A DNA stretch of 24,000 nucleotides from Marinilabilia salmonicolor (GCF_003003035.1 NZ_PVTS01000023.1:34696-58695), one strand, 5' to 3'. Shown: positions 6,533 to 24,000, counted from the first letter of the stretch. Numbers and translations: made by a program. Notes: a model not told the origin generated them from the letters alone.

Positions 6533-7962
6533 AAAAAGAAATTATCATTAAGCACCTGGGAGTTGTACTCTTATTGAATGGGGTTTTCTTATTTATATCT
6601 TTCCTGATTTCCTTTTTTTTGAACGAATCATCAACGGTTTCGCTCCTATTTAGTGCATTAATATGCGGAATTTTTGGGGTTTTCCCACTCATCTTTGTTG
6701 AACGAACAGAGCATATAAGTTTTAACGAGGGCTTAACCATTGTTGTTTTAGGTTGGATAATTACCTGTGTTGTTGGCATGTTACCCTACCTAATGTGGGG
6801 AGGGGAATTTACACTAACTAATGCCTGGTTTGAAAGCGTTTCAGGTTTTACAACAACGGGCTCAACAATTTTAACTGAAATAGAAAGTTTACCAAAAGGA
6901 ATCCTTTTTTGGCGTTCATCAACCCACTGGATTGGAGGCATTGGCGTAATTTTGTTCGTTTTACTTATTCTTCCAAGGTCAAAGGGACAAAGAATAACCA
7001 TATACAACACTGAGATTTCCAGTCTTTCAAAAATGAATTTTCGGTACAACACCCGTAAAATAGTACACATTCTTGCAGTTGTATATATAAGCCTGACTCT
7101 GCTTGAAACAATAGCCTTAATGGTTTTTGGAATGAATTTTTTCGATGCGATAAATCATTCTTTTGCAACAATCGCAACGGGTGGTTTTTCCACAAAAAAC
7201 CTGAGCATTGCAGAATATAATAATCTCGGCATAGAAGTTATTATTATGGTATTTATGATTCTCAGCGGAAATCATTTTGGTTTGATTTACGGTACCATTA
7301 TGCTGAAAAAAGAAAATTTATTTCGGTCTTCCCTGGCAAAAACCTTTGTTTCAGTATTGTTAATTGGTATTTTACTGGTAACCTTGAAATTATATTTATC
7401 TGGAACCTATGATTTATTGACTTCATTGCGTTACGCATCGTTTCAGGTAATTTCGCTTGGAACAACAACCGGTTTTGCCACTGTAGATACAATTCATTGG
7501 CCAATCTTCACACAAATTATCCTGATTTATTTTACAATTCAATGTGCCATGTCCGGGTCAACCTCTGGAGGGTTGAAATTTGATCGTGTGTATATATTTT
7601 TCAAATTATTAGGAAAGCAAATAAAATTACTAAAACACCCTAATAGTGTTTTTGTGTCAAAATTTGACGGCAAGAGGATTGACGAAAAATTAGAAGAACA
7701 GACCTTGGTTTTTATTGTATTATATGTTGCTGTATTCTTTGCAACTACTATCATCTTAACAGCAATGGACATTGATGGGATGACTGCATTTTCCGCCTCA
7801 ATAGCTACTTTAGGAAATGTCGGACCCGGGTTTGAGAATGTAAGTTCGTTGGGAAATTTCGCATCCTTACCCGATTTTGGAAAGTTCGTTTTATCTATAA
7901 ATATGCTTTTAGGACGACTTGAAATATTCAATATTCTGGCTTTAATAATGATAAAAAAATAA
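6529..7962 (+). CDS. trkH: TrkH/KtrB-family potassium uptake transporter subunit
   Basis: 477-aa polytopic protein with repeated M1-P-M2 pore-loop signatures (SGFTTTGST, ATGGFST, GTTTGFAT, SGSTSGGLKF, LGNVGPG) characteristic of the Trk/Ktr/HKT superfamily. Confidence 0.92.
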   Translation: MKKEIIIKHLGVVLLLNGVFLFISFLISFFLNESSTVSLLFSALICGIFGVFPLIFVERTEHISFNEGLTIVVLGWIITCVVGMLPYLMWGGEFTLTNAWFESVSGFTTTGSTILTEIESLPKGILFWRSSTHWIGGIGVILFVLLILPRSKGQRITIYNTEISSLSKMNFRYNTRKIVHILAVVYISLTLLETIALMVFGMNFFDAINHSFATIATGGFSTKNLSIAEYNNLGIEVIIMVFMILSGNHFGLIYGTIMLKKENLFRSSLAKTFVSVLLIGILLVTLKLYLSGTYDLLTSLRYASFQVISLGTTTGFATVDTIHWPIFTQIILIYFTIQCAMSGSTSGGLKFDRVYIFFKLLGKQIKLLKHPNSVFVSKFDGKRIDEKLEEQTLVFIVLYVAVFFATTIILTAMDIDGMTAFSASIATLGNVGPGFENVSSLGNFASLPDFGKFVLSINMLLGRLEIFNILALIMIKK

Positions 7963-8094
7963 GCTTATTCAAATCACTCGTTTAGATCTAATAAAAAGAA
8001 TCTCGCCTGGTTTTACGAAAAAAATCAAGGAAGGAAGAGACAAAAACGGGAATCCGGAGAAAGCTTTAGTGAGTTAAAAACCTGGTTTTGAAAT

Positions 8095-8122
8095 GGTCTT
8101 CAAACAATTTGAAGATCTTTTT
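8095..8122 (+). terminator. Rho-independent terminator downstream of trkH
   Basis: 10-bp stem GGTCTTCAAA (8095-8104) / TTTGAAGATC (8108-8117, one G-U pair), CAA loop, then TTTTT (8118-8122). It lies 133 nt after the trkH stop. Confidence 0.6.
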
Positions 8123-8186
8123 GAATACAAGTCAACGGTGGCTTCTTAGGTTGACGATTTGACTTTGTAATAACACGCAGTAAAAT

Positions 8187-8211
8187 AGGCCTGCCATATT
8201 TGGGCAGACCT
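8187..8211 (-). terminator. Rho-independent terminator downstream of the OMP gene (minus strand)
   Basis: The minus-strand RNA reads AGGUCUGCC-CAAAUAU-GGCAGGCCU (9 bp including one G-U) followed by AUUUUA. On the plus strand the same stem has a C-A mismatch, so it is better on the minus strand. It lies 36 nt after the stop at 8247. Confidence 0.6.
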
Positions 8212-8246
8212 TTCGAAACCTACATATATTCAAGCTGTTTGCATTG

Positions 8247-9054
8247 CTAAAACATAAACCTCAAACCCAAAATCACTCGATTCCCGGCCTGCAATCCTCC
8301 TGAATGAGAATTGTTAACCGCAATTTGATACAATCCCTCAATTTTAAGATGAGGGGAAACAAACTGGAGGCCCGGCGATACATATCCTGAAACATTTGAT
8401 TCTCCGGTTCCCGGGTTATTGTTGATCAGTGAAAACTCCTGTACGGGCGACAAGATCCAATTCTCCAGACCTGGCAGCAGAATATTTCGCGAAATTGCAA
8501 GGTTCACTTGAAATACTCCTGCAGCTGCCTCCTTTTCACTTGTGTTATAATTGACCCATTCGTATGCATTGTTAAGATCAAATGACCAGAGTCCCGGACG
8601 AAATGAGGCATTGACACCGATTACCGGACTAAATGTATTTGCTGCAGATTTCCTCAGAACAGGGAATGTACTTCCAACAAATCCTGCAATTCCCAACGAG
8701 TAATGCCGGGTGTTTTTACGGTACAACTTCATTTTTCCCATTAAAAAAGGATCCATAAAGCTGTTGTCCATTTGCATCATGGTTTCATTACTAACCACAT
8801 CTCTATATGCATTGCGCATCATCAGCGTTACATCGGGTGTTAAACCGTAGGCCACTACCAATGGCATCATGTGCATCCGAATTTCGTTCCCTCCCATCCT
8901 ATTAAATAATGCTTCTATACTGGAGACGAACAATTATTCGATCCTGAGCCGGTGTAAGACCTGCATCTACACTAATTCCCTCTGCCCTTGAATAAAATCC
9001 AAGGGCCATAAAAATTATCGTAAGCAAAATAAAACGGAATCCATTATTCTTCAT
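8247..9054 (-). pseudogene. Outer-membrane beta-barrel 'transporter' (MetA/phenol-degradation-like porin) interrupted by a +1 frameshift
   Basis: ATG 9054 opens a 50-codon frame with a clear signal peptide (MKNNGFRFILLTIIFMALGFYSRAEGISVDAGLTPAQDRIIVRLQYRSII*, stop 8902-8904). The 228-codon track ORF (8247-8933) has no signal peptide, is in another frame, and ends in a barrel-type C-terminus (GLRFMF). The total span is 808 nt, not a multiple of 3. Removing one T from the TTT run (plus-strand AAA 8905-8907) fuses them as ...RLQYRSIINRMGGNEIRMH.... Confidence 0.6.
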
Positions 9055-9628
9055 TTCCATGGGGATTTAGTTTCTTGCCTGGAGTAAAATTGGCCTTTCT
9101 AATGCGATTTTCTATTTCTTCGTCAGATACCGAAGCCCCGGGTTCCAATAAAACAGAGATCTGCTTTTTCTGGAAACTGGCTGTTGATCTGGTTACTCCC
9201 TCAATTTTGTTTACCTGCTTTTCGAGGGATGACTGACACCCTGGACAATCCATGCCAAAAACCTCATATTTAACAACCTGATTCTTCTCTTCTGGAGCAC
9301 GATCGTACTTACAGCAACCCGGAAGTTTTTCATAAACCTCGTCCGGTGCTTTGTGCATATTTGTGTCATGCCCCGTCTGGGCAATGGCCATGTGGATATG
9401 GTGAATATTGGTTTTTGCTTCGTCATAGGTCACGGTGATCATTTCGGATTCTTTATTCCAATCCGAGCCGGTAACCCCATCAACAGAATTTGCAGCTTTT
9501 TCAATGCGGGCTTCACACATGCCGCATTCCCCTTTTACTTCAAATTTCTCTGTTTTGTTTTGTGCAAAGATGGTAGCTCCTGATCCGATCAATAGCAGGG
9601 TCAATAAAACTATTATTTTATGTATCAT
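9044..9628 (-). CDS. Secreted heavy-metal-associated (HMA) protein with two metal-binding domains
   Basis: 194 aa with a signal peptide (MIHKIIVLLTLLLIGSGATIFAQ). The first HMA-like domain has a CGMC motif (VKGECGMCEARIEKAA), a CC pair follows (LPGCCKYD), and the second domain is a canonical HMA (GMDCPGCQSSLEKQV). Its stop overlaps the ATG of the downstream OMP gene. Confidence 0.85.
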   Translation of the reverse strand: MIHKIIVLLTLLLIGSGATIFAQNKTEKFEVKGECGMCEARIEKAANSVDGVTGSDWNKESEMITVTYDEAKTNIHHIHMAIAQTGHDTNMHKAPDEVYEKLPGCCKYDRAPEEKNQVVKYEVFGMDCPGCQSSLEKQVNKIEGVTRSTASFQKKQISVLLEPGASVSDEEIENRIRKANFTPGKKLNPHGNEE

Positions 9629-9856: not shown

Positions 9857-10228
9857 TCATAACCGATAAACCTGGAACAATGCCAGGCGCCTGGCCATTT
9901 TTTGAATTGGCCCAAAGGAAGGTGGAATAGCAGAACGTAAACGCTTTTCAGGTGTTGTTACATCTATTTCTTTTGAAACGCTATCAAGGAGTGCTGAAAA
10001 GAGGTAAGGTAAAATGGAAATTGAGGCAGATACAACAAAATCATTTTTTACCTGAAGAAACTCTGTCTCTGTTTCACAACATGGTTCAACGTCACAGCAG
10101 GGATGCTCTCCACTTAGTTCAACAGAAATGAGATCGTGATCGCAATAATGCTTAGATATGGTAACCCCGGTTGTCGAAATCAACAACAAAGCAACCATGA
10201 TAATATTTGTGACAGTTCTAAGCATCAT
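9857..10228 (-). CDS. HYC_CC_PP-family small membrane-anchored Cys-rich protein
   Basis: 123 aa with an N-terminal TM/signal anchor, then the motifs that name the family in the right order: KHYCDHD, PCCDVEPCCE and IPPSF. The family name is from memory of NCBI naming for Bacteroidota proteins and was not verified by search. Confidence 0.6.
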   Translation of the reverse strand: MMLRTVTNIIMVALLLISTTGVTISKHYCDHDLISVELSGEHPCCDVEPCCETETEFLQVKNDFVVSASISILPYLFSALLDSVSKEIDVTTPEKRLRSAIPPSFGPIQKMARRLALFQVYRL

Positions 10229-11128: not shown

Positions 11129-11626
11129 CTAACGGAGCTTAAGTCTTGCAAAAACCTTAGAAGGGTTTTTCCTTTGTTCCAGGATATACTCCATAACCGG
11201 ATTGGTGTCCAACTGTTCAAAATCGATAAATTCCTTTTCCCTGGCCAGGATCCTTACCGGAAAGACTATTCCGGTTTTTGTATCGTTAATAAAATAACGG
11301 GAATTATTGAAAGTTATCCGTCCATAAAATTTAACTCCCTGAGCCATCCGCTCTTTAATGGACTCAATGGTTGGGTTCTTAATAAAAGTCAGGTGGCAGG
11401 CCTGAAAATCATGATCTTTGTTATCGGAAGCCCTTAAACGAAAGGTTACCACATCGTCCTTGTGGGGACAAGCCATAGGCAGCTCTTTGGTTTGCCGGGC
11501 CCACAAAATCTGTTCATTTCTTTCATATCGGAAAAAGTAAGATTTTCCGATTATTTCCTCCTTAATAAATCCGTATTCCTTACTTACATCAAATTGGGTT
11601 ACAACGCCTCTGTGCTCTTTATTCAT
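11129..11626 (-). CDS. Hypothetical protein with one or two cold-shock-domain-like (OB-fold) modules
   Basis: 165 aa. The N-terminal half aligns by eye to CspA: GVVTQFDVSKEYGFIKEEIIGKSYFFRY versus [28 protein letters not shown], and later DDVVTFRLRAS versus GQKVSFTIESG. The C-terminal half (FYGRITFNNSRYFINDTKTGIVFPVRI...) looks like a second, more degenerate copy. That it is coding is fairly secure; the fold call is tentative. Confidence 0.5.
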   Translation of the reverse strand: MNKEHRGVVTQFDVSKEYGFIKEEIIGKSYFFRYERNEQILWARQTKELPMACPHKDDVVTFRLRASDNKDHDFQACHLTFIKNPTIESIKERMAQGVKFYGRITFNNSRYFINDTKTGIVFPVRILAREKEFIDFEQLDTNPVMEYILEQRKNPSKVFARLKLR

Positions 11627-11666: not shown

Positions 11667-12008
11667 TTATTGAATCTGATTCTTCTTCCATTTAACAGTA
11701 AAACTCATTAGTCTGTTTCCAAACACCTTCAACATTAACGGGCTCAATACCACCTCAGGCAAAAAAGCCGGCAGAAAAATAAAGAAAAACATTATATCGA
11801 AAGGTAAATTCCAGAAACTCCATATAAAAAATGATGCAGGGATAGTCAAACACCGGGTCACCAGAATAACAGCCAGGCTTTTCAAAAAGGATTTTCTGTT
11901 TTTACGCAGATTATAAAGCTGAAAACCCGCCCCAAGGAGATAAGTAATTGAGCCCATTAATAAAATGAGCTCAATTATCTCTATTATAGGGGTCGGTTGT
12001 TGCTCCAT
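11667..12008 (-). CDS. Small integral membrane protein, unknown function
   Basis: 113 aa with about three hydrophobic helices (IIELILLMGSITYLLGAGF; AVILVTRCLTIPASFFIWSFW; IMFFFIFLPAFLPEVVLSPL). It is co-oriented with and closely spaced to its neighbours. I recognise no motif. Confidence 0.55.
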   Translation of the reverse strand: MEQQPTPIIEIIELILLMGSITYLLGAGFQLYNLRKNRKSFLKSLAVILVTRCLTIPASFFIWSFWNLPFDIMFFFIFLPAFLPEVVLSPLMLKVFGNRLMSFTVKWKKNQIQ

Positions 12009-12075: not shown

Positions 12076-13401
12076 CTAATCTGTCTTTTCATTCAAATTC
12101 AAATTGTACCAGTCAATCTTTCTGGAGAAATACATAACCAGTCCAAGGATTATAAAAATGCCTATGCTTCCGATTAGCAATGCGTAATCCTGTAATTGAA
12201 TTATTACGAAAATGAATGTGTAAAGCACGGCCAGAATTCCTGAAATCAGCATTGTTAATTTTCCTGATTTCAATATTGCCCTTACATAGCCTGATACCAG
12301 TAACAAAGTTGATAGAGCAGAAACAATAAAGGCAATATTGTATTTCAGATGCTCAGATATTGATAAAAGTAAGGTGTAAAAAACCACTAAAGCAATTCCC
12401 ACCAGGATATACTGGATCGGGTGGATAAATATTTTATTCAGAACTTCGATAAAGAAGAATACCAGAAAGGTAAAACCAATAAACAATATGGCATATCTGA
12501 TCGACCTGTAAGATTTCTGGTAACTATCCACCGGAAGCAGAAGGTCAATCCCGAAAGCGGATTCATCGATTGAGTGTCTGCTGTTGGTCCAGGCTTGAGG
12601 AAAATTCCTGTTTAGGTGCAAAACATTCCAATTGGCCTTAAATCCTTTATTGGTGACTTCACGGCTATCCGGCAAAAAAGCACCGTTAAAGCTGGGATTG
12701 CTCCAAGCAGATGAGATATTTATATCGGTTACTTTGCCAACAGGCGTAAAATAAAGCAACTGACTACCCTTCAGATCCAGATGAAGATTGAAATTGTACT
12801 TTAGGTTGTTATCAGGATTCATTACGAGCTGTGCATTGATTCCACTTTTCACAACATCATTTGAAGAAACTCCCGGGTTAAATGGTATTTCCTTGTTGTT
12901 CCATTCTAATGCCACCTGTTCCTCTATCCCTCTTAAATCGTCAATACCAACAACAAACTCGGCTTTATCCAAAAGAATATTTTCTGTCGGAATATCGAAA
13001 GTGTTAAAATCCACATTGTCAAAGTTTCCTGAAATATTGATTTTGGAATTGTAAACGACAATTTCATAAATCCCTCTATATCTTTTCTCCGGATTAATGT
13101 TTCCGGAGATGTTAAGTTTCGATGGAAGAATGTGAAGATATTCTTTGACCTGAATGACTTTCTCAGTTGAGTCTTTTTTTGAAAACTCTTTTACATATCT
13201 ATAATACGGAATGGAGATAAAAGGTCCTGAAATAGTTTGCTCCTGCCCCCACTTTGAACTAACCTCAGTGATGGCCTGTCGCTGAGTGTTTTCCCGTTCA
13301 AAGATCAGGCTTTCAATCATCGATGTAGGAATAAGCAACAGCAGAGCAATGACAACTATTGCTCCCACCTTAAAATAGATGTTGGTTTTTAGTGTTTTCA
13401 T
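12076..13401 (-). CDS. creD: CreD-family inner-membrane (cell envelope integrity) protein
   Basis: 441 aa with CreD architecture. It has an N-terminal TM, then ERENTQRQAITEVSSKWGQEQTISGPFISIPY (compare the E. coli CreD N-terminus), a large extracytoplasmic domain, and a cluster of 5 C-terminal TM helices. It starts 30 nt after the hsdM stop. Confidence 0.82.
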   Translation of the reverse strand: MKTLKTNIYFKVGAIVVIALLLLIPTSMIESLIFERENTQRQAITEVSSKWGQEQTISGPFISIPYYRYVKEFSKKDSTEKVIQVKEYLHILPSKLNISGNINPEKRYRGIYEIVVYNSKINISGNFDNVDFNTFDIPTENILLDKAEFVVGIDDLRGIEEQVALEWNNKEIPFNPGVSSNDVVKSGINAQLVMNPDNNLKYNFNLHLDLKGSQLLYFTPVGKVTDINISSAWSNPSFNGAFLPDSREVTNKGFKANWNVLHLNRNFPQAWTNSRHSIDESAFGIDLLLPVDSYQKSYRSIRYAILFIGFTFLVFFFIEVLNKIFIHPIQYILVGIALVVFYTLLLSISEHLKYNIAFIVSALSTLLLVSGYVRAILKSGKLTMLISGILAVLYTFIFVIIQLQDYALLIGSIGIFIILGLVMYFSRKIDWYNLNLNEKTD

Positions 13402-13431
13402 AATGACCTTTTAACTGGTTTTAATAGGGTA

Positions 13432-15060
13432 TTAAATTAGCGGCAATCCCAACTCCTTCAAAAATTCATTGTGTTTATCAGTATTCGTTTTGATTCGTTC
13501 ATTTATTGATGCCAGGCGTTCATTCACTTCTTTCAAGTCAATCTTTTCTTCTTCTGCAGCTGTATTCACATAGCGTGAAATATTCAAATTGTAACCGTTC
13601 TTTTCGATTTCTTCCATCGAAACTTTTCGTGAATAACGGTCGGTTTCTTTTCGGTATTTGTATGTTTCGACGATAGATGTAATATTCTCTTCCCCCAGCC
13701 AGTTCTGACGCTTGCCTTTCTCAAAATGCTCACTGGCATTAATAAACAGGACATCTTCTTCCTTTTTACACTTTTTCAGTACCAGGATACAAACCGGAAT
13801 ACCCGTAGAATAAAACAAATTTGGAGGCAACCCGATAACCGTATCAATATTATTGTCTTTTAGTAGTTTGGTTCGGATACGCTCTTCTGCTCCTCCACGA
13901 AACAACACTCCATGTGGCAAAATAATGGCCATGGTTCCTCCTTCAGCCAGGAAGTGAAACCCGTGCAAAAGAAATGCAAAGTCGGCAGCTGATTTCGGGG
14001 CCAATCCGTAACTTTTAAAACGAAAATCCTCGGCCAGAGTGTCGTTTGGTTCCCAACGCAAACTAAATGGGGGATTGGCTACGATGGCATCAAATTCTAT
14101 CTTTTTGGATGGATTTATCTCGTTCAATATATCCCAGTGATTGAGCAGGGTGTCACCGTGATATATATCAAACTCGGTATCTTTCATGCCATGCAACAGC
14201 ATATTCATTCGGGCCAGGTTGTAGGTCGTAATATTGTTTTCCTGCCCATAGATTTTACCGGTATTGCCACCACCTTCTTTTATTCGTTTCCTTACGTTCA
14301 ACAAAAGTGATCCCGAACCACAGGCAAAATCCAGTACTTTGTCGAGCTTACTTTTCTTTCCTGTGGAAGGTTCCTGGCTATCCAAGGTAACGATTTCAGA
14401 GAGGATGGTTGAGATTTGTTGAGGTGTATAAAACTCGCCTGCTTTTTTACCGGAACCGGCGGCAAATTGCCCAATCAGATATTCATAAGCATCCCCTAGT
14501 GTATCAGTATCGGTAGAAAATTCGGCAATTCCTTCAGCAATTTTCTGAATAATGGTGCAAAGCTTTTTATTCCGGTCGGCTGGTGTTCGACCGAGCTTTT
14601 CAGAATTCAGGTTGATTTCTGAAAACAAACCCTGAAAAGAATTTGCAAACGATTCGTTTTCGATGTAGCGGAAACCGGCTTCTAAAGTAATAAGTAATTC
14701 CCCATCTTGTGTTCGGGCCAGTTCGGTAATATTACTCCAAAGATGCTGCGGTTTGATTACGTAATGCACTTTTCTCCGCATTTGTTTTTCAAACTCTTCA
14801 ACATCTTCTGGATTCTCGTAGTACCAAATTTCTAAGGGTGTATTTACCTTTAATTTAGACATCACGTCTATTGGCGTGTCATCAGGGTAATCTCTTCCTA
14901 ATTCCTTTTTTGCAGATTCTACATAGTTGTGAGATAAGTATCTTAGAAACAAGAATGAAAGCATGTAATCGCGAAAATCGTCCGCATTCATTGCACCTCG
15001 TAGTTGATCTGCTATTTTCCAAAGGGTTTTACCCAGTTGTTGTTGTTCTATTTGTGTCAT
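13432..15060 (-). CDS. hsdM: Type I restriction-modification system, N6-adenine DNA methyltransferase subunit M
   Basis: 542 aa with an HsdM_N-type N-terminus (LWKIADQLRGAMNADDFRDYMLSFLFLRYLS). The SAM-binding motif I is DFACGSGSLL and the catalytic motif IV is IVANPPFSLRW. The ATG lies 2 nt after the hsdS stop. Confidence 0.95.
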   Translation of the reverse strand: MTQIEQQQLGKTLWKIADQLRGAMNADDFRDYMLSFLFLRYLSHNYVESAKKELGRDYPDDTPIDVMSKLKVNTPLEIWYYENPEDVEEFEKQMRRKVHYVIKPQHLWSNITELARTQDGELLITLEAGFRYIENESFANSFQGLFSEINLNSEKLGRTPADRNKKLCTIIQKIAEGIAEFSTDTDTLGDAYEYLIGQFAAGSGKKAGEFYTPQQISTILSEIVTLDSQEPSTGKKSKLDKVLDFACGSGSLLLNVRKRIKEGGGNTGKIYGQENNITTYNLARMNMLLHGMKDTEFDIYHGDTLLNHWDILNEINPSKKIEFDAIVANPPFSLRWEPNDTLAEDFRFKSYGLAPKSAADFAFLLHGFHFLAEGGTMAIILPHGVLFRGGAEERIRTKLLKDNNIDTVIGLPPNLFYSTGIPVCILVLKKCKKEEDVLFINASEHFEKGKRQNWLGEENITSIVETYKYRKETDRYSRKVSMEEIEKNGYNLNISRYVNTAAEEEKIDLKEVNERLASINERIKTNTDKHNEFLKELGLPLI

Positions 15061-15062
15061 AA

Positions 15063-16355
15063 TTAATTGTCAATTTTCGGAAACAAGCCTTGCATTAAGC
15101 CCTTTTTGTGCGACTGCAAGTGCTCTACTTTTTCTGATTGGGCGGTGATTAACTCATCCAAGGCAGATAGACAGGTGGCGATTTTTTGCTGTTCTTTAAA
15201 GGATGGAATATAAACCACTAATGTTTTTAATTGATTAGCATAAAGGTGAACAACTGAAATTCCTTGCGCAATTTGTGCAAGCTCTTTTTTCTTTGCATTA
15301 TTTAAATAATAGGCAAGGAAAACACCATTAATTCTTGTTTTAATGATGTTCAAATCACCACCCAAAGCAACTCCCTCCTTCATAACACAAGAAGCTGTGG
15401 CTATATCAATATGAGTTTCGCCGGATGAAGGAATTATTACATCATTCTTTTCACTCAATACTAAAGTTTCACTATTTAAATTTGTGAATGACTTTATATC
15501 TCGGATAGTTTCATTGTAATGAGTATATAATTCTCCGTATCTGATACAAGGTAAACTTCCATTTTCCGAAATATCACTTTTGGATATTCCTTTTCCCTTT
15601 GAAAATGTTGCAACTTCCCCTAACGTATTATTTACCCACTCTCCATCATTCTCAAACTCCGGAAAACGAAACTTCGGTACTTTTTCACCTTCTTGGGGAA
15701 AAAGATTTTGCATCAAGCCTTTTTTGTGGTCTTTGAGGGCCTGAAGTTTATCATTGTGGGCGGCTATCAGCTCGTCTAAGGAAGAAAGACAGGAGGCAAT
15801 TTTTTGTTGTTCCGGTATTGTAGGAGGTAAATTAATCGGCATTGAAGCGTATTCTGTTCCATTAATGCCTGGCTGTCCACTTCTTGCAGAAATGAAACTT
15901 ACCCACTTCCAATATTGTTCAGAGTAAAGAAACTGGAAGAGCAATTCTGAATCTATTTTCTTGGTATCTGGTTTTACTCTTATAAGAAACCCTGCAAAAA
16001 CAAGTTTACCGTCCTTTTTTCTGTATTTGTATGATTTGCCAACACTTGCCCCTGTTCTTGCTAAAACTATATCTCCCTCCGACAGATAATTATCTTCAGT
16101 GACATTTCTGTTTACAGAAACTTTATCCCTTGTAATAAATGTTCCATCATCAGAGATATCGGTAATTCTAAGATAAGTTGGCAATTTATCAGAATATGGT
16201 GCTGCGGGTGCATTAATTCCATATTCAGGATTTTTTAATAAGCAATCACCTAATATCTTTAATTCCCACTCCCCATCCTCCACAAACTCAGGAAAACGCA
16301 ATTCCGGTATTAACCCTCCAGCTTTGCTTTTGGCACGTTTTATCACCTTACTCAT
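15063..16355 (-). CDS. hsdS: Type I restriction-modification system, specificity subunit S (two TRDs)
   Basis: 430 aa with a duplicated N-terminal motif (LRFPEFVEDGEW at residue ~19 and FRFPEFENDGEW at ~229). Two coiled-coil conserved regions are 27/43 identical by hand alignment: EQQKIASCLSSLDELIAAHNDKLQALKDHKKGLMQNLFP (15684-15812) and EQQKIATCLSALDELITAQSEKVEHLQSHKKGLMQGLFP (15066-15194). They separate two unrelated target-recognition domains. Confidence 0.92.
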   Translation of the reverse strand: MSKVIKRAKSKAGGLIPELRFPEFVEDGEWELKILGDCLLKNPEYGINAPAAPYSDKLPTYLRITDISDDGTFITRDKVSVNRNVTEDNYLSEGDIVLARTGASVGKSYKYRKKDGKLVFAGFLIRVKPDTKKIDSELLFQFLYSEQYWKWVSFISARSGQPGINGTEYASMPINLPPTIPEQQKIASCLSSLDELIAAHNDKLQALKDHKKGLMQNLFPQEGEKVPKFRFPEFENDGEWVNNTLGEVATFSKGKGISKSDISENGSLPCIRYGELYTHYNETIRDIKSFTNLNSETLVLSEKNDVIIPSSGETHIDIATASCVMKEGVALGGDLNIIKTRINGVFLAYYLNNAKKKELAQIAQGISVVHLYANQLKTLVVYIPSFKEQQKIATCLSALDELITAQSEKVEHLQSHKKGLMQGLFPKIDN

Positions 16356-17270: not shown

Positions 17271-20200
17271 TTACTCATAGGCTGCCAATCCTGAAATTTC
17301 GCGCCCTTGGGCTAATTTTTTTAATTGTGGTGCAAGGTCCTTCATCAATGCTACCTCTACCTTACTTCTTTGTTTCCATCCTAATTCCAAGGGTTCCAAT
17401 AGATCTGTGAGTTTTTCCCCGTCAAAAATCATTCGGTTCATAACCTGTTCAACAAAGTCTTTCAGGTCTGATGTTTCTAACCCGTGTTTGTTGGCAATGG
17501 CAGCCAGTTCCTTGTGGTACTTCTCAGCCTTAAATGTTTCATAACCTTTCTGCAAAGTCTCCACATCCTTTCCACTTTCCCAATCCAGACTGTTGATGTA
17601 TTCGGTCAGATCCTCCTCCTCATCCATGAGGTTGGAATTCGATTTCAGCAAACCAATGACCTGCGCCTTGGTCATTTTTTGTTTGGCCGGTTTCTTCTGT
17701 GTACTATCAGCAATCAGGTTCATGATGTAATCGTAGTCAATCACCGCAGAAGCAAACAATACAAATTCAAAATCCAGTTGCTGTATTTCTTCCGGGGCAT
17801 CATCACCCTCTTTTTGCTGTATTTCCCTGAATTGTTTGGCGGTTTCTATGTAGGAGCTTCTGAATTCCTGTAAAGTTTCCTTTGGAAGTATGGCCTCAAT
17901 CATCTCCTTTTGCTCCTCGTCCAAATCGGTGTATTGGTCCAACTGGGTTTTGAGCCGTTGCACTTCCTTGAAATTTTTCACAAAAGAAATCCGGGCAGCA
18001 TCACCTTTTAGGTTGTAAACTTCCTGTGGTTCGTTGGCTAAATCATGTTCATGCATGAATTCCCCCAAAGCTTCAACTGCCTTTTGATATTTTTCAATCA
18101 CCACCGGAGCAGGATCAACCATCCATATTTCTTTGGCCTTGCCGGCATCTTCTCCGGAAAAAAGAGTAATGGCCTGGTTAACGGCATCCTGTTGCGAGCG
18201 GAAATCCAGAATATTTCCATAGGGTTTGGTATCGTTTATCACACGATTGGTACGCGAAAAAGCCTGAATCAATCCGTGATGTTTCAGGTTCTTGTCCACA
18301 TACAAAGTATTCAGGAATTTGGAATCAAAGCCTGTGAGTAACATGTCCACTACAATGGTCAGGTCAATTTTATTCTTACGAGGATATTCTTTATTGCTGA
18401 ACTTTTGGTCTTTAATGCGTTTTTGCACATCCTGATAGTACAAATCAAACTCATTAAAGCTGTGATTGGTGCCATATTGTTTGTTGTAATCGGCAATAAT
18501 CTCAGTTAAAGCTTTTTTCTTCTCTTCCGGATTTTGCTTGTTGTCTTCTTTCTCCTGCGCTAAATCCTCCTGAAGCTGTTTAATGTCTGCTGCATTTTTC
18601 TGACTTTGCTGGTCACCGTTGGCAGCAATCAATTGTGCCGGTGGCGAAAACACACAGGCAATGTTCAAAGGCACATAATCCGGATTTTCATTTAACTTTT
18701 TCTTTTGAATTTCCTTGAACAAGCGATAATATTCTATTGCATTGTTGATGGAAGCTGTGGCCAAAAGTGCGTTAAATTTCCGCTGATTGGTGGCAGCATT
18801 ATGCTTGTCAATTATTGCTTCTGCTACGGCCTGCTGAGCAAGAGCTTCTCCAGGCTTAGGATTTTGTTTACCCTCCCCTTTAAAATAATCAATGTGAAAA
18901 CGCAGGACATTTTTGTCATCAATGGCATGAGTTATCGTGTAAGCGTGTAGTTCCTTTTCAAAAATGGTTTTTGTCGTCTTATAGGTCTCGTATTGGTCTT
19001 CACGAATTTTTTGAGAGGCATTGTCATCAAAAATGGGCGTACCAGTAAATCCAAAAAGCTGCGCATTTGGAAAAAACTCTTTGATCGCCTTGTGATTCTC
19101 TCCAAACTGGGATCGGTGGCACTCATCAAAAATGAAAACCATCCGTTTGTCGCTCAAGGACTCTAACCGTTCTTTATAGTTCCTTTTATATGTGCCATCC
19201 AGTGCCAAACCCAATTTTTGAATGGTGGTGACAATCACTTTATCGGCATAGTCGGTGGAAAGTAAACGTCTAACCAAAGTTTCGGTATTCGTGTTTTCTT
19301 CCACACTTCCTTCCTGAAACTTATTAAACTCCTCACGGGTTTGACGGTCGAGATCTTTACGATCAACTACAAAAAGGCATTTTTCAATATCAGGATTGTC
19401 TTTTAAAAGCGTTGAAGCCTTGAAAGATGTCAGGGTTTTCCCACTTCCGGTGGTATGCCAAATGTAACCATTACCCCTGTTTTGGTGAATGCAATCAACA
19501 ATGGCTTTTACAGCATAAATTTGGTAAGGCCGCATAACCAGCAATTTCTGTTCACTCTCTACCAATACCATGTACTTGCTAATCAACTCACCGAGGGTGC
19601 ACTTTTTCAGAAACTTATCTGTGAATGATTCAAGGTGCCTGATTTTCTTATTTTTCTCATCAGCAAGTTGGTAAATAGGCAAAAACTGCTCATCTGCATT
19701 GAATTGAAAATGCTGGTTTTTATTATTGGCGAAATAAATTGTATTGCTGCGATTGCTCACAATAAATAACTGCATGAAACACATCAGGGAGTTGCCATAT
19801 CCATTGCCCGGTTCATTTTTATAGTCCACGATTTGCTGCATGGCTTTCCGGGGCGAAATATCCAGTTTCTTCAACTCAATTTGCACTACCGGCAAACCGT
19901 TAATCAAAAGGATAACATCATAGCGTTGATTACTGTTTTCCGTATTAATTCGTAGTTGGCTGACAACCTCGTATTCATTCTTACACCAGTCTTTGATATT
20001 GACCAAAGTATAATGTAGTGGCGTACCATCTTCCCTTTGAAAATACTGCCTTTCGCGCAACATTTTAGAAGCTTCAAAAACATCAGGCTCAATAATCTGT
20101 TCCCGCAACCTTAGAAACTCACTATCCGTAAGACGAACACGATTCAGGGCTTCAAATTTGGCTTTGAAGTTCTGCTCAAGTGTTTTTCTATCAACAATAT

Positions 20201-20273
20201 CGGGCCGATGAGTATATTTCAGCTCTTTGAGCTGCTCAATTAGCTTTTCCTCTATTTGATGTTCTTTCGTCAT
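17271..20273 (-). CDS. hsdR: Type I restriction-modification system, restriction/translocase subunit R (EcoR124/type IC-like by N-terminal layout)
   Basis: 1000 aa. The N-terminal PD-(D/E)xK nuclease region is YDVILLINGLPVVQIELKK. The SF2 helicase motif I is WHTTGSGKT and motif II is FIFDECHRSQ, followed by FGFTGTP and a QAFSRTNR-type motif VI. A long helical C-terminal domain follows. Confidence 0.95.
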   Translation of the reverse strand: MTKEHQIEEKLIEQLKELKYTHRPDIVDRKTLEQNFKAKFEALNRVRLTDSEFLRLREQIIEPDVFEASKMLRERQYFQREDGTPLHYTLVNIKDWCKNEYEVVSQLRINTENSNQRYDVILLINGLPVVQIELKKLDISPRKAMQQIVDYKNEPGNGYGNSLMCFMQLFIVSNRSNTIYFANNKNQHFQFNADEQFLPIYQLADEKNKKIRHLESFTDKFLKKCTLGELISKYMVLVESEQKLLVMRPYQIYAVKAIVDCIHQNRGNGYIWHTTGSGKTLTSFKASTLLKDNPDIEKCLFVVDRKDLDRQTREEFNKFQEGSVEENTNTETLVRRLLSTDYADKVIVTTIQKLGLALDGTYKRNYKERLESLSDKRMVFIFDECHRSQFGENHKAIKEFFPNAQLFGFTGTPIFDDNASQKIREDQYETYKTTKTIFEKELHAYTITHAIDDKNVLRFHIDYFKGEGKQNPKPGEALAQQAVAEAIIDKHNAATNQRKFNALLATASINNAIEYYRLFKEIQKKKLNENPDYVPLNIACVFSPPAQLIAANGDQQSQKNAADIKQLQEDLAQEKEDNKQNPEEKKKALTEIIADYNKQYGTNHSFNEFDLYYQDVQKRIKDQKFSNKEYPRKNKIDLTIVVDMLLTGFDSKFLNTLYVDKNLKHHGLIQAFSRTNRVINDTKPYGNILDFRSQQDAVNQAITLFSGEDAGKAKEIWMVDPAPVVIEKYQKAVEALGEFMHEHDLANEPQEVYNLKGDAARISFVKNFKEVQRLKTQLDQYTDLDEEQKEMIEAILPKETLQEFRSSYIETAKQFREIQQKEGDDAPEEIQQLDFEFVLFASAVIDYDYIMNLIADSTQKKPAKQKMTKAQVIGLLKSNSNLMDEEEDLTEYINSLDWESGKDVETLQKGYETFKAEKYHKELAAIANKHGLETSDLKDFVEQVMNRMIFDGEKLTDLLEPLELGWKQRSKVEVALMKDLAPQLKKLAQGREISGLAAYE

Positions 20274-20328: not shown

Positions 20329-20336
20329 CAAAAATA
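20329..20336 (-). promoter_or_regulatory. Bacteroidota-type -7 promoter box (TAnnTTTG) upstream of hsdR
   Basis: The minus strand reads TATTTTTG, 56 nt upstream of the hsdR ATG. I found no convincing TTTG -33 element at the expected 19-21 nt spacing, so this is weak. Confidence 0.25.
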
Positions 20337-20488
20337 GAATTTACATAAAGTCTTTATTTTACAGGGATAGAGAAATTAAGAAGGATGGGAAATTTCATTA
20401 TCGAACAATATATAAAACCAATATAATTGATCTGATATCTTAAGCCAAAATAAACCTCTTGCATTTTTTACAAGTCTCCAAAGTCATC

Positions 20489-20505
20489 AAAAAACGCCAA
20501 AGGCG
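20489..20505 (-). terminator. Short GC-stem intrinsic terminator after qatD
   Basis: The minus-strand RNA reads CGCC-UUU-GGCG followed directly by UUUUUU. It lies 34 nt downstream of the qatD stop (20539-20541). The stem is only 4 bp but all G-C, and the U6 tract is canonical. Confidence 0.45.
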
Positions 20506-20538
20506 ATTTGCGATTGTGCTTGGCTGTGTGTTGGATTT

Positions 20539-21267
20539 TCATTTAATTAACCTTTTAAAGTTTGACCAAAGGATTGAGGACATTCTAAGGAAGTCAACCT
20601 CAAAAATAACAGATAATTCTTCGACTATATATCTAATATCCTTAGGTGTAAAAGGTTTCTTATTATACTTAACAAATGGAGAATCTGTTTCCAATAATAA
20701 TTTATCTAATGGAATCATCTTAATTAATTCTTTTCCAGAATTTGATTTAACCATCGAGTAATTAACAGAAAAGAAATATCCATTTTTGATAGCTTGATTC
20801 AATGTAATTTTACTTCCTGAATACCAATGCAAGATTACTTTACCGTTAAACGAGGCACCTATAATTGATGTAATTTCATCTGCACTTTGCCTTGAATGGA
20901 TTGTTAGTATTTTACCTCCAATCTGGTTACATCGGTCAATAAGCTCAGTAAAGAAAGATACTTGAAGTTCTTTAAAATCTTTACCTGTCTTAAAATCTAA
21001 ACCTACTTCCCCAATGTATCTGGTTTCATTTAACAATGTCCACATTTGAGGAATGTGATGTTTGTATTGAAAAAGTAATTCAGGGTGAAATCCTAATGCA
21101 GGTCTTATATATTTTGATGAAATTTTTTCCTTTAGCTTAGAATAAAGTACAGGTAAATTACTAACTGCGATGGTGTATATCTTATTTTCTTCAACCTCTT
21201 TGACTATATCACTAACAGATTTGAATAAATCTAAATGAAAATGAGTGTCGTATAAGTAACTATCCAT
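20539..21267 (-). CDS. qatD: Qat anti-phage system TatD-family metal-dependent nuclease/hydrolase QatD
   Basis: 242 aa with the TatD N-terminal HxH motif (YDTHFHLD) and later metal ligands (GEVGLD, LTIHSR, ILHWYSG, LLETDSPF). It overlaps the qatC stop by 8 nt and is the last gene of an A-B-C-D ordered operon. Confidence 0.85.
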   Translation of the reverse strand: MDSYLYDTHFHLDLFKSVSDIVKEVEENKIYTIAVSNLPVLYSKLKEKISSKYIRPALGFHPELLFQYKHHIPQMWTLLNETRYIGEVGLDFKTGKDFKELQVSFFTELIDRCNQIGGKILTIHSRQSADEITSIIGASFNGKVILHWYSGSKITLNQAIKNGYFFSVNYSMVKSNSGKELIKMIPLDKLLLETDSPFVKYNKKPFTPKDIRYIVEELSVIFEVDFLRMSSILWSNFKRLIK

Positions 21268-22558
21268 TGTATTTATCTAAAAGCTCAGCTAGTTCATTCA
21301 TTCCACTTACATAGAGTTTTTCAAACTCATATTGCTTATATAAAATAGGACCAGATTCCTGAATTTTAAATATTGTTTTAGATGAAGAATTTTTAAAATC
21401 CAGAATCCCAATTTTGTATGATTTAAGGTCAATTGGAGCGTTATTCCCTAAATTGAAATTCACATTCTTATATGATGAATAATCGACACTATATGCCTTT
21501 TCAATAGCTGCTCTACGTATTACACAAGGCAAGCAAGTACCACAGTGTATAGGGGCTTTTGCCTTATCATATCGAGCTTGGTCCGGGTGAGAACATGACA
21601 TTGTCTTCGAAATGTTTTCTTTTAGGAAAGCAGAGTCAATACATTCAATAATCATCTCTCCTTTTGTTTTGAATTGGTAAGGATTATTTAACTCAACTTT
21701 GATATCTAGATTATTTAGTAGGGTTTGTAACATTCCCATATAATATGGATGAGTTGTTCTTGTACTACTTGTTCCTAATCGTGTGTTCGTAAGTGGGATG
21801 TTTAATGAAATTAATCCATTCTCTGGGATAAATAGTTTGGTCTGTTCATTTAAAGCAGAAGCTAAAATTATTGCGTGCGTAAAGAACATAAATGAGCGAG
21901 TCCTTGTCGAATCTTCTATACCACCAACAGGTGCTGCGTGAAAATTAAAAAATTGCTTATCGGTAAGAGCATACTTCTCACTAAGAATTGTTTTTACATT
22001 ATTCTGATATTCAATAACACCTTTACCTCCACCATAATGTCCTATAAAAGCGATATTCTTTTCTTTGCCTAATAAATCAATTGCACCAATAAAAGAATCC
22101 AATCCTCCTGAAAGCATACAAAATGCTAATGGTTTATAATTTTTCCTAGATTTTTCCGCACATTTTTTTACTCTTAACTCCTTATTGTTTAATTCCCTTT
22201 TTCTGAATTCAAATTCCCATAAATCCCCACTTAGGAATGATACCATTTGTTCGAGCAATTCTTTTTGATTGTTCCATTTATCAGGTTCTAAAACAGGCAT
22301 GTATATTTTGAACCTTCGAGTCCATGAATCAAAAGTATCTTTTCTAAGAACTTTTCGGTCGGCATAATATACCATCAATGAAATGTAAAATAAGTCAAGT
22401 GCCTCATCTGAAAAGAAGTTTGGAAACTGGCAGAGCCTCCTTACAGTTTGATAAAATGTCCAATGATATTCCTTTTTATCATTTAGATTAATATTAAAAA
22501 GACAATCCTGAACGGAAAAATTATCTTCATCATTTAATCTGCATATAATTTGAATCAT
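21260..22558 (-). CDS. qatC: Qat anti-phage system QueC-like PP-loop ATPase QatC
   Basis: 432 aa. The PP-loop SGGLDS sits at residues 150-155 (22094-22111), preceded by a ~140-aa N-terminal extension absent from housekeeping QueC. A QueC-type zinc cluster is present: C...HCGTCLPC (C-x16-CxxCxxC). The start overlaps the qatB stop (ATGA). Confidence 0.85.
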   Translation of the reverse strand: MIQIICRLNDEDNFSVQDCLFNINLNDKKEYHWTFYQTVRRLCQFPNFFSDEALDLFYISLMVYYADRKVLRKDTFDSWTRRFKIYMPVLEPDKWNNQKELLEQMVSFLSGDLWEFEFRKRELNNKELRVKKCAEKSRKNYKPLAFCMLSGGLDSFIGAIDLLGKEKNIAFIGHYGGGKGVIEYQNNVKTILSEKYALTDKQFFNFHAAPVGGIEDSTRTRSFMFFTHAIILASALNEQTKLFIPENGLISLNIPLTNTRLGTSSTRTTHPYYMGMLQTLLNNLDIKVELNNPYQFKTKGEMIIECIDSAFLKENISKTMSCSHPDQARYDKAKAPIHCGTCLPCVIRRAAIEKAYSVDYSSYKNVNFNLGNNAPIDLKSYKIGILDFKNSSSKTIFKIQESGPILYKQYEFEKLYVSGMNELAELLDKYNG

Positions 22559-23433
22559 AGTATATCCTCCATAACCTTATAACATTGTTCGTAAAGATTC
22601 TCGACCTCTTTGTTCATTTTATTGTTAAAATCAATTTTAGAGAAGTCTTTATCTTTTAATGTTGTTTCTACTTTTGAATTGATATATTCTTTTAACTCTT
22701 TCTCCTTACTTATTGCATCAGCAGGAGAAGTTGATTTTGATTCAATACGACTTCCTAAATCATTAATAATTCTTTCGTAAATATAGGATTCCACTTGTAT
22801 CGGAATCATTTCGTTCAAAAGCTCCTTATCAATCTTTTCTAAAGTAGTTATGTCATTGTTTTCATCGTCAAGTTTTTCATATAAAACTTCCATTGTACGA
22901 AGTAATGCTTTTCTTGCAACAGAATCTTCTTTGGTTACAGGAATGGGTGCTATTCGATTTATAACATCTGTTAATATTTCTTTTGCAGTTCTTCCCTCAT
23001 ATTCAACGTTATATTGAGATAATGTTTCTCGAATTCCTTGCGTTGAACTACTGCTTAAAAATTGTCCTAAACCCGATGTTGAACGAATACCGCTTGACGC
23101 AGATTTTGCAGCGCTTTTTGAGCCTCCATGAGCTTTAACATAACTTGAAACAGCTCTTTTGAAGTTTCGAGATGCGCCAGAGGCATACCGAGACATAAAG
23201 TTTTTAGCATTACTCCAGTTATTCTCATTGCCGTTTGAGTCTTGATTATTACCACTGTTTTCATCGTTATTATGGCTCTGATTATTTTCAGCAGAATCTC
23301 CATCAGTATTATTATTCTCTTGGTCTTGAGAATTATCATCACCATTCTGTGAGTCAGGATTTGTGGTATCATCAAAATCATCAGGTAATAATGGATTCCC
23401 GGATGGTCCGGTGTACATACTTGAGGTTCCCAT
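22555..23433 (-). CDS. qatB: Qat anti-phage system associated protein QatB
   Basis: 292 aa, assigned by position between the QatA-like and QueC-like genes with 4-nt coupling. It starts MGTSSMYTGPSG, followed by a ~75-aa acidic N/D/Q/S-rich low-complexity region and a helical C-terminal domain. There is no enzymatic motif, which fits QatB being uncharacterised. Confidence 0.7.
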   Translation of the reverse strand: MGTSSMYTGPSGNPLLPDDFDDTTNPDSQNGDDNSQDQENNNTDGDSAENNQSHNNDENSGNNQDSNGNENNWSNAKNFMSRYASGASRNFKRAVSSYVKAHGGSKSAAKSASSGIRSTSGLGQFLSSSSTQGIRETLSQYNVEYEGRTAKEILTDVINRIAPIPVTKEDSVARKALLRTMEVLYEKLDDENNDITTLEKIDKELLNEMIPIQVESYIYERIINDLGSRIESKSTSPADAISKEKELKEYINSKVETTLKDKDFSKIDFNNKMNKEVENLYEQCYKVMEDIL

Positions 23434-23437
23434 ATTT

Positions 23438-24000
23438 TTATTTTATTTCATTACCAATTGCGTTTTTTAATCTTGGGTTATCTTTTTGCCATTTCTCAAG
23501 GAGTTCATTTATCTCCAAGACTTTATTGGATGTTGAGGCAAATTCTTTTATCCGTGGAATGAATGAAACTTTAATATTACCACTTGGTATTGCATTTAAA
23601 CATGCAATAGTATCGGTATAGTTTTCGGGTCGGCTTCCACCCCAAGAAATGAATGACTTAAATAGCTCGGCGGAAATATCAGATGCTGTTTCAATCTCTG
23701 AAATAACTGCTCTTAGTACTTGGGCTGATTCAAAATCGCTTATCAAATTAGCTTTTTTTAGAGCTTCGGTTCTTGCAGAATCACTTCCTGACAATAATCC
23801 AGATAAAATATTTTCAGCTTCAAGGCTTAATTGTTTTATTTCACTAGTACTTCTTAATTGAAGACTCTCTCTTGAAAAGTAGAAGTAAGGTTGCAAATTA
23901 GTTTCACTTAATTTAGGTTCTATTTTAATCCAATTTATAAACCAGTCATCATCTTTCCAGAGCTTTAGCTTTTCAACTTTATCCCATTTATCATTTTCAA
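23438..24000 (-). CDS. qatA: C-terminal part of the QatA-like protein (Qat ATPase); 5' end lies beyond the window
   Basis: By hand translation the frame stays open from 23438 to the window edge (...ENDKWDKVEKLKLWKDDDWFINWIKIEPKLSETNLQPYFYFSRESL...). The track start at 23896 is only the first in-frame TTG. The stop lies 4 nt before the qatB ATG. The ATPase domain itself is not in the window, so identity rests on operon position. Confidence 0.6.
   Translation of the reverse strand, partial: ENDKWDKVEKLKLWKDDDWFINWIKIEPKLSETNLQPYFYFSRESLQLRSTSEIKQLSLEAENILSGLLSGSDSARTEALKKANLISDFESAQVLRAVISEIETASDISAELFKSFISWGGSRPENYTDTIACLNAIPSGNIKVSFIPRIKEFASTSNKVLEINELLEKWQKDNPRLKNAIGNEIK

Follow-up and report, generated by a model that had tools for sequence, protein, structure and literature searches.

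We analysed a stretch of 24,000 nucleotides (nt) of Marinilabilia salmonicolor DNA (GCF_003003035.1, NZ_PVTS01000023.1:34696-58695; the whole stretch is hereafter called the window). Between positions 20539 and 24000, its minus strand carries three complete open reading frames (ORFs) and one that runs past the window edge, all co-oriented, which we identify as the genes of a Qat anti-phage system. M. salmonicolor is a marine bacterium of the Bacteroidota (Marinilabiliales), the phylum from which a preliminary description of this DNA, made from the sequence alone, had supposed it to come. The same description proposed a qatABCD-type operon in the canonical order, and Qat profiles do match all four proteins. 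Each product hits its own PADLOC model, with E-values of 7.4e-12 for the QatA fragment, 9.9e-42 for QatB (over residues 1-289), 1.6e-119 for QatC, and 1.2e-64 for QatD, and the NCBIfam equivalog cut-offs are passed by QatB, QatC, and QatD, not by QatA. Since four adjacent genes match four distinct Qat-specific profiles (7e-12 to 1.6e-119), the agreement is not due to chance. The order qatA-qatB-qatC-qatD is kept on six contigs with identical QatC, and also in relatives from Draconibacterium orientale and Clostridia. In our reading, to which we give a probability of about 0.9, the region belongs to a complete and intact qatABCD anti-phage operon, of which it holds qatBCD and the 3' end of qatA; the operon lies within a defence island adjoining a type I restriction-modification (R-M) system.

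The junctions between the four genes had been given as 4, 4, and 8 nt. The sizes are right, the first being a gap and the other two overlaps. As read from the sequence, the stop codon of qatA (TAA, 23440..23438) is followed by the 4-nt spacer AAAT and then by the ATG of qatB at 23433. Genes qatB and qatC overlap by the 4 nt ATGA, and qatC and qatD by the 8 nt ATGGATAG. Three antisense ORFs on the plus strand (20459..20761, 23235..23621, and 23649..23861) were taken as shadow ORFs of this AT-rich coding region. The locus was extended with a 67.9-kb metagenome contig from ENA (L001), which agrees with the window at 100% identity throughout the 12,741 nt that the two have in common and reaches 8,558 nt beyond window position 24000. 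The exact QatC sequence is present on 18 public contigs. RefSeq holds the exact sequences of all four proteins, from M. salmonicolor, as WP_106154623 to WP_106154626, and names three of them "Qat anti-phage system ... QatB/QatC/QatD", the QatA entry being a "KAP family P-loop NTPase fold protein". Hence, the Qat system at this locus is one already known, and the locus is already annotated in RefSeq. The coordinates of the genes, of the main protein features, and of the neighbouring genes are listed in Table 1.

Table 1. Positions of the qat genes, of features of their products, and of neighbouring genes; positions are those of the window, except where contig L001 is named.
Feature	Position	Strand	Basis or remark
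qatA, 3' part, 186 codons without stop	23438..24000	-	frame open to the window edge
qatB, 292 amino acids (aa)	22555..23433	-	ORF call and PADLOC, NCBIfam, and PDB matches
Codons for QatB M1-G2-T3-S4	23422..23433	-	translation; Gly2, exposed once Met is removed, is the putative site of modification
QatB residues 21-74, N/D/S/Q-rich low-complexity linker, predicted disordered	23212..23373	-	composition
qatC, 432 aa	21260..22558	-	PP-loop ATP pyrophosphatase of the QueC family; both termini carry Qat-specific extensions
QatC PP-loop SGGLDS, residues 150-155, putative ATP pyrophosphate site	22094..22111	-	aligns with P. aeruginosa S156-S161
QatC TRTTHP, residues 266-271	21746..21763	-	T266/T268 align with P. 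aeruginosa T278/T280 and E. coli T276/T278
QatC zinc site C322, C339, C342, C345	21524..21595	-	pattern C(x)16CGxCxxCxxRR
qatD, 242 aa	20539..21267	-	predicted type II (HxH) TatD-family metal-dependent nuclease
hsdR	17271..20273		type I R-M
KilA-N domain protein, 275 aa	16348..17175	-	PADLOC candidate PDC-S22, 2.8e-133
hsdS	15063..16355		type I R-M
hsdM	13432..15060		type I R-M
Upx-like protein, 1254 aa	L001:3216-6980	+	directly upstream of qatA, ~1.6-5.3 kb beyond window position 24000
272-aa ORF beside the PDC-S02 gene	L001:1996-2814	+	ORF
DUF1016/YhcG PDDEXK nuclease	L001:753-1814	+	PADLOC candidate PDC-S02, 7.7e-125

QatC scores 460.1 bits against an NCBIfam equivalog cut-off of 280 bits. 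It aligns with the QatC structures of Escherichia coli NCTC9009 (9VLK, 4.9e-77, 39% identity, residues 32-427) and of Pseudomonas aeruginosa (9ZEE_B, 8.5e-73, 36% identity, residues 4-426). These alignments span residues 4-427, both extensions included, and the N-terminal extension, which had been described earlier, measures ~145 aa. The 432-aa protein is therefore no full-length match to QueC. The two motifs on which its relationship to QueC had been based are both present: SGGLDS occupies residues 150-155 and the CxxCxxC cluster reads CGTCLPC at 339-345. The latter is followed by VIRR, and the fourth cysteine is C322. The four cysteines align with C334/C354/C357/C360 of P. aeruginosa and C332/C352/C355/C358 of E. 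coli, and the spacer of the zinc site has 16 residues, three fewer than the 19 of E. coli. In P. aeruginosa QatC, the double substitution S156A/S161A in the PP-loop abolishes defence (PMC13279940, PMC13639016), and mutants of T278/T280 lose it (PMC13279940). The counterparts of the latter, T266/T268, form the Qat-specific T-x-T found in place of the Y-x-D pair by which QueC and Cap9 recognise 7-carboxy-7-deazaguanine (CDG). The motif set defined for QatC (D63, DxWxxxF, RxRxxxF, ExG, HP, P(x)4TK, and Y376; PMC13329287) is present as D55, DLWEFEF (112-118), RTRSFMF (219-225), ENG (246-248), HP (270-271), PYQFKTK (293-299), and Y363. The first motif, D(x)4R(x)6WxR at 67-81, has a spacer one residue shorter than D(x)4R(x)7WxR.

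QatB had been called motif-less, which does not hold: family models exist for it (NF041924, PF28083), and its N-terminus carries a conserved MGTS. The protein scores 115.8 bits against an NCBIfam equivalog cut-off of 100 bits and matches the PDB entries 9ZEE_A (7e-12, aligned from residue 1) and 9VLL_A (2e-9). Its core is presumed to be alpha-helical and homologous to that of studied QatB proteins, and QatB is the presumed protein substrate and adaptor of the system. The N-terminus reads MGTSSMYTGPSGNPLLPDDF, and residues M1, G2, T3, S4, Y7, G9, P10, L15, and P17 are invariant relative to the Draconibacterium, Clostridia, and P. aeruginosa homologues (85%, 37%, and 28% identity, respectively). 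The substitution G2D abolishes defence in the P. aeruginosa and E. coli systems (PMC13279940, PMC13639016). Relative to D. orientale, residues 1-20 are 95% identical, with a ratio of nonsynonymous to synonymous substitution rates (dN/dS) of 0.025, and the core is 91% identical (dN/dS 0.057). The linker between them, with 18 N, 10 D, 7 S, and 5 Q, is 57% identical (dN/dS 0.164), and the Clostridia homologue has 32 residues fewer there. A disordered tail of 30-90 aa is expected of a QatB, and in this protein the low-complexity tail reaches to about residue 74. Under this low-complexity tail, we found no tandem repeat in the DNA that could be a source of phase variation.

The length of QatB is steady at 292 aa among the cluster members, and the versions of 287 aa are alternative start calls. 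On two of the six contigs (L002, 9141..10004; L003, 6288..7151), the protein is called from Met6, and this drops the MGTS N-terminus (window 23419..23433), which is functionally essential in model systems. Since MGTS is kept in homologues of merely 28-37% identity, the true start of QatB is Met1 and not Met6. Wrong QatB start calls of this kind have been noted before (PMC13279940), and calling from Met6 is a systematic annotation pitfall for this protein.

QatD matches Pfam TatD_DNase (2.4e-43) and scores 233.7 bits against the NCBIfam QatD equivalog cut-off of 230 bits, while it falls short of the equivalogs of the housekeeping proteins TatD, YcfH, and YjjV by hundreds of bits. Its top PDB match is an uncharacterised metalloprotein of Deinococcus (3GG7, 1.9e-41), and it is 33% identical to the QatD of Acinetobacter baumannii (9XSN, 3.4e-37). 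With both it shares the HxH motif and, as predicted from its sequence, the type II TatD TIM-barrel. The ligands of the binuclear metal site, H9, H11, H61, E87, D91, H124, H147, E193, and D195, are present, and they provide counterparts for all nine residues studied in the A. baumannii protein (H8, H10, H60, E86, D90, H124, H148, E194, and D196; PMC13434339). The latter work describes QatD as a Mg-dependent 3'-5' exonuclease on single-stranded DNA and a Ca-dependent apurinic/apyrimidinic endonuclease, inhibited by nucleoside triphosphates (NTPs).

The upstream gene had been presented as a truncated qatA whose product should be checked for an NTPase domain. It is truncated at the window edge, and only there: on L001, the gene occupies 7310-9121 and encodes a complete protein of 603 aa. 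The fragment in the window covers positions 461-636 of the 646 of the PADLOC profile, i.e. the C-terminal region. Full-length QatA matches the PADLOC profile end to end (1.5e-124) and Pfam KAP_NTPase (1.9e-46). It has the Walker A motif GDWGSGKS at 39-46 and the Walker B motif VIFIDDLDR at 197-205 (DDLDR at 201-205), and is thus a KAP P-loop NTPase. In the systems studied, QatA binds DNA and oligomerises (PMC13279940). It broadens the range of phages blocked and does not bind QatB, QatC, or QatD (PMC13279940, PMC13639016).

We compared the operon with known systems. QatABCD of E. coli NCTC9009 was reportedly described by Gao et al. in 2020. The M. salmonicolor locus shares with it the A-B-C-D order, the SGGLDS, T-x-T, and four cysteines of QatC together with D55 and Y363 (D63 and Y376 in E. 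coli), the QatB N-terminus MGTS...Y.GP...P.(D)F, and the DD of the QatA Walker B. In contrast, its QatC is 33 aa shorter (432 vs 465), with a one-residue deletion in D(x)4R(x)6WxR and a three-residue deletion in C(x)16CG. The QatB tail is rich in N and D, whereas that of E. coli is rich in P, S, and G, and the host phyla differ (Bacteroidota vs Pseudomonadota). At the interface, R412, K414, and F415 of E. coli QatC correspond to K394, I396, and F397. Structures are available for the E. coli system (9VLK/9VLL and 9WVJ/9X6C) and for that of P. aeruginosa (9ZEE/9ZEF; PMC13279940). With P. aeruginosa QatC, the M. salmonicolor protein shares the PP-loop, R221/F225 (R233/F237), T266/T268, the zinc cysteines, and L261 (L273). 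The residue aligned with W18 of P. aeruginosa QatB is D19, and F20 comes next, so that the aromatic is offset by one. In summary, the M. salmonicolor copy keeps every residue whose mutation abolishes function in the Qat systems of E. coli, P. aeruginosa, and A. baumannii; one contact patch between QatB and QatC, weighed below, differs.

The closest system in our comparison is the qatABCD of D. orientale DSM 25947 (L007), with 85% identity in DNA, 85-91% in protein, and the same junctions. Between the two operons, dN/dS is 0.050 for qatA, 0.091 for qatB, 0.076 for qatC, and 0.110 for qatD, and all four genes are hence under purifying selection. The DNA similarity of 85% extends over L001:7253-12022 and ends abruptly on both sides, which places the limits of the shared cassette 57 nt ahead of the qatA start codon and 2 nt past the qatD stop (window 20537/20538). 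At these edges, we identified neither flanking repeats nor a recombinase in the M. salmonicolor locus. The contexts differ, since the D. orientale cassette adjoins a MobA/VirD2 relaxase and a DUF4011 helicase whereas that of M. salmonicolor lies between the type I R-M system and the Upx-like gene. In a metagenome-assembled genome (MAG) of Clostridia, the cassette adjoins a tyrosine integrase. The guanine-cytosine (GC) content of the operon is 32.3%, compared with 30-33% in the upstream Upx-like and PDC-S02 genes, 37-41% in the type I R-M genes, and 37.3% in the window. The sharp edges relative to D. orientale, the contrast in GC, and the relaxase and integrase that neighbour the relatives show the operon, set in a defence island, to behave like a cassette that spreads by horizontal transfer, the four genes moving as one unit. 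Members of the same 90% clusters are found in D. orientale, Carboxylicivirga, Prolixibacteraceae, and a Flavobacteriaceae MAG. Among reference genomes, Clostridia MAGs provide the relatives that come next, with ~50% identity and the same four-gene order.

The preliminary description held the mechanism of Qat to be poorly understood. This is partly outdated, as five papers from 2026 (PMC13279940, PMC13376578, PMC13639016, PMC13434339, PMC13329287) provide structures of QatBC and QatD and a working model. Against some phages, the 1:1 complex of QatB and QatC is sufficient (PMC13279940). Edman sequencing gave Gly as the N-terminus of QatB, and the tail of QatB occupies the active site of QatC (PMC13376578), with Gly2 next to the alpha-phosphate of ATP (PMC13376578, PMC13639016). 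A GTSKAY peptide carrying the NDG modification was detected by liquid chromatography-tandem mass spectrometry, and QatD, too, is bound by the tail of QatB (PMC13639016).

The mechanism that we propose for M. salmonicolor is drawn from the E. coli, P. aeruginosa, and A. baumannii orthologues, the link to this locus being homology and the conservation of residues. Met1 of QatB would be removed, and the amine of Gly2, borne on a long flexible tail, would enter the active site of QatC. There, QatC would adenylate a carboxylate with ATP and then transfer it to the Gly2 amine. The carboxylate might be CDG, giving an NDG adduct as with Cap9 of the type IV cyclic oligonucleotide-based antiphage signalling system (CBASS), or a related compound. 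The same tail would tether the QatD nuclease, presumably held in check by NTPs, and QatA, an oligomeric DNA-binding KAP NTPase, would act separately and widen the range of phages. By analogy, we commit to the two central elements of this scheme for the present locus, namely that QatC would acylate QatB Gly2 in an ATP-dependent manner and that QatD would be a tethered nuclease. For the adduct being derived from CDG, we would offer about even odds.

Several observations weigh against our reading of the operon and of its mechanism. QatD clears its equivalog cut-off narrowly, and full-length QatA, at 473.9 bits, stays below the NCBIfam naming cut-off of 600 bits, which is why its RefSeq label is merely that of a KAP family protein. 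In pairwise sequence alignments, on which the comparison of the contact patch is based, the basic patch R407/R410/R414 of P. aeruginosa QatC corresponds to D387/N390/K394 (QatC 387-397; window 21368..21400), and the acidic patch E179/D181/E182 of its QatB corresponds to V183/Y185/E186 (QatB 183-186; window 22876..22887). In the model systems, three laboratories obtained neither a CDG-dependent activity of QatC in vitro nor density for CDG, and NDG was found at low stoichiometry only; the T-x-T substitution itself argues for a first substrate other than CDG (PMC13279940, PMC13376578, PMC13639016).

The salt-bridge patch that was mutated in P. aeruginosa thus appears, from these alignments, to have been replaced on both partners, and the two sides of the interface may thus have co-varied in the lineage of Bacteroidota. 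The alignment also shows that the QatC loop N253-H270 packing on QatB, including L261, is well conserved. Because the identity to the studied QatC and QatD proteins is 33-39%, QatA scores under its cut-off, and the patch is replaced on both sides, one can imagine that the Qat lineage of Bacteroidota and Clostridia is mechanistically different, e.g. with an altered docking of QatB or a first substrate on Gly2 other than CDG. We find this unlikely. If it were true, a divergent orthologue might permit the activity of QatC to be obtained in vitro and its substrate to be identified.

Among the alternatives to an intact operon, the one that survives best is that of a Qat relic, inactive or repurposed, in which for example only QatBC or only QatD works, or the QatB-QatC complex has been lost. 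In model systems, QatBC alone and QatD alone defend against some phages (PMC13279940, PMC13434339), and therefore all four genes need not be required. A relic would also fit with a QatA under the equivalog cut-off and with a basic/acidic QatC-QatB patch of the P. aeruginosa type that the alignment does not find conserved. Yet selection has acted on the four genes alike (dN/dS 0.05-0.11), QatA, at 0.05, included. The four ORFs are full length relative to the profiles, their catalytic and metal-binding residues are intact, and the four-gene order persists in the Clostridia homologues at 50% identity. The conservation of the QatC loop that contacts QatB speaks in the same sense. We therefore consider a relic to be very unlikely.

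An intact Qat operon also has to be set against housekeeping synthesis of queuosine or 7-deazaguanine, in which the 432-aa protein would be a QueC making preQ0 and the TatD gene would encode an unrelated hydrolase for DNA repair or quality control. The PP-loop and the zinc cysteines are indeed common to QatC and QueC, a member of the cluster is annotated in one metagenome as "7-cyano-7-deazaguanine synthase", and Pfam QueC matches the protein, if weakly (23 bits for a cut-off of 22 bits). This match is limited to residues 275-354, the sequence lacks YxQxHxxE, VPxRN, and YPDC, the motifs of a canonical QueC, and Y-x-D has become T-x-T. As already remarked in the preliminary description, the neighbours expected of such a pathway are missing: we found no queD, queE, queF, or tgt among the ORFs of the window and its 8.5-kb extension (~32 kb). 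A canonical QueC (~220 aa, PF06508 cluster 1) is thus ruled out at the sequence level by the partial match and the absence of motifs and que neighbours. Furthermore, E. coli QatC fails to complement a queC deletion (PMC13329287), and the TatD-family protein passes the QatD equivalog while failing those of TatD, YcfH, and YjjV. Altogether, we give this explanation next to no credence.

Equally negligible is another system built on QueC, either type IV CBASS (Cap9, CD-NTase, and Cap10) or the Dpd modification of DNA by 7-deazaguanine, as we found no CD-NTase, TGT-like Cap10/DpdA, or other Dpd genes in the window or its extension, and PADLOC matches the 432-aa protein, with its Qat extensions, to QatC only, whereas Cap9 has ~185 aa, keeps Y-x-D and the catalytic motifs of QueC, and adjoins a CD-NTase (PMC13329287). 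The likeness between the two systems is one of chemistry: Cap9, also of the QueC family, modifies the N-terminal glycine of its partner (MGGS), and QatC may share this chemistry (PMC13279940). Deazaguanylation by Cap9 with its CD-NTase (9NTO) serves as the model for the presumed action of QatC: both would combine a PP-loop enzyme of the QueC family with a Gly2 acceptor on the flexible N-terminus of the partner, in MGGS there and in MGTS in QatB. Hence, the locus is not a member of type IV CBASS, and it may work like one.

The qat operon is directly followed downstream by a complete type I R-M system with hsdR, hsdS, and hsdM, the neighbour that had been announced for it. The gene of the KilA-N domain protein sits within this R-M operon, between hsdR and hsdS, and overlaps hsdS by 8 nt. 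On contig L003, which comes from another metagenome, the region 14063..16108 is 100% identical to L001 16916..19199 (window ~13360..15643) save for three deletions of 82, 86, and 69 nt, which split hsdS and truncate hsdM and creD. Either the R-M system has decayed in a sister population or the deletions are artefacts of assembly. Beyond the R-M genes come creD, two ORFs without match, a SRAP gene, and then ordinary transporter and cell-wall genes. The two ORFs, 11129..11626 and 11667..12008, have the SRAP gene on one side and creD on the other, and the defence island has its edge there. Along with 8247..8933 and 9857..10228, they belong to a set of minus-strand ORFs (113-228 aa) with no significant Pfam or PADLOC match; that at 11129..11626 has a marginal PADLOC match to CSD_V (E 3.4e-4 over 32 residues).

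On the other side, the 1254-aa protein encoded upstream of qatA has an N-terminal SEC-C motif and resembles the anti-phage protein Upx over residues 550-1232 only (PADLOC 1.4e-38; NCBIfam 166.8 bits vs a cut-off of 1900 bits). Its N-terminal ~540 residues have no match in searches with PADLOC, Pfam, or NCBIfam profiles, and by sequence the protein may be a divergent variant of Upx. Further upstream, the PDC-S02 nuclease and the adjacent 272-aa ORF prolong the low-GC (30-33%) defence block. Taken with purifying selection, the surroundings of the operon (type I R-M, PDC-S22, Upx-like, and PDC-S02) lend indirect support to a role of the locus in phage defence.

We found no tRNA genes that could serve as integration sites in the window or L001, and no Rfam families in the window. 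A scan for terminators gave none after qatD, where a CGCC/GGCG hairpin followed by a run of six T folds no better than shuffled sequences (z -0.33). No promoter could be assigned, the sigma-70 scan being uninformative for Bacteroidota. The motif TAnnTTTG occurs 63 nt upstream of hsdR (20329..20336), as a mere match to the motif, and does not occur upstream of qatA.

The value of this locus as a discovery is small, since the system was described in 2020, its structures and a model were published in 2026, and RefSeq already names the QatB, QatC, and QatD of this very locus. As a specimen, its value is modest: it is an intact and divergent orthologue from Bacteroidota, in which the essential residues are kept and the QatB tail and one contact patch have varied. 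The published survey of Qat found Bacteroidota only sporadically (PMC13434339). The clean boundaries relative to Draconibacterium show that the four genes travel together as a unit. More generally, the locus points to the features of Qat that are truly invariant and offers an alternative set of proteins for the question of what QatC attaches to QatB.

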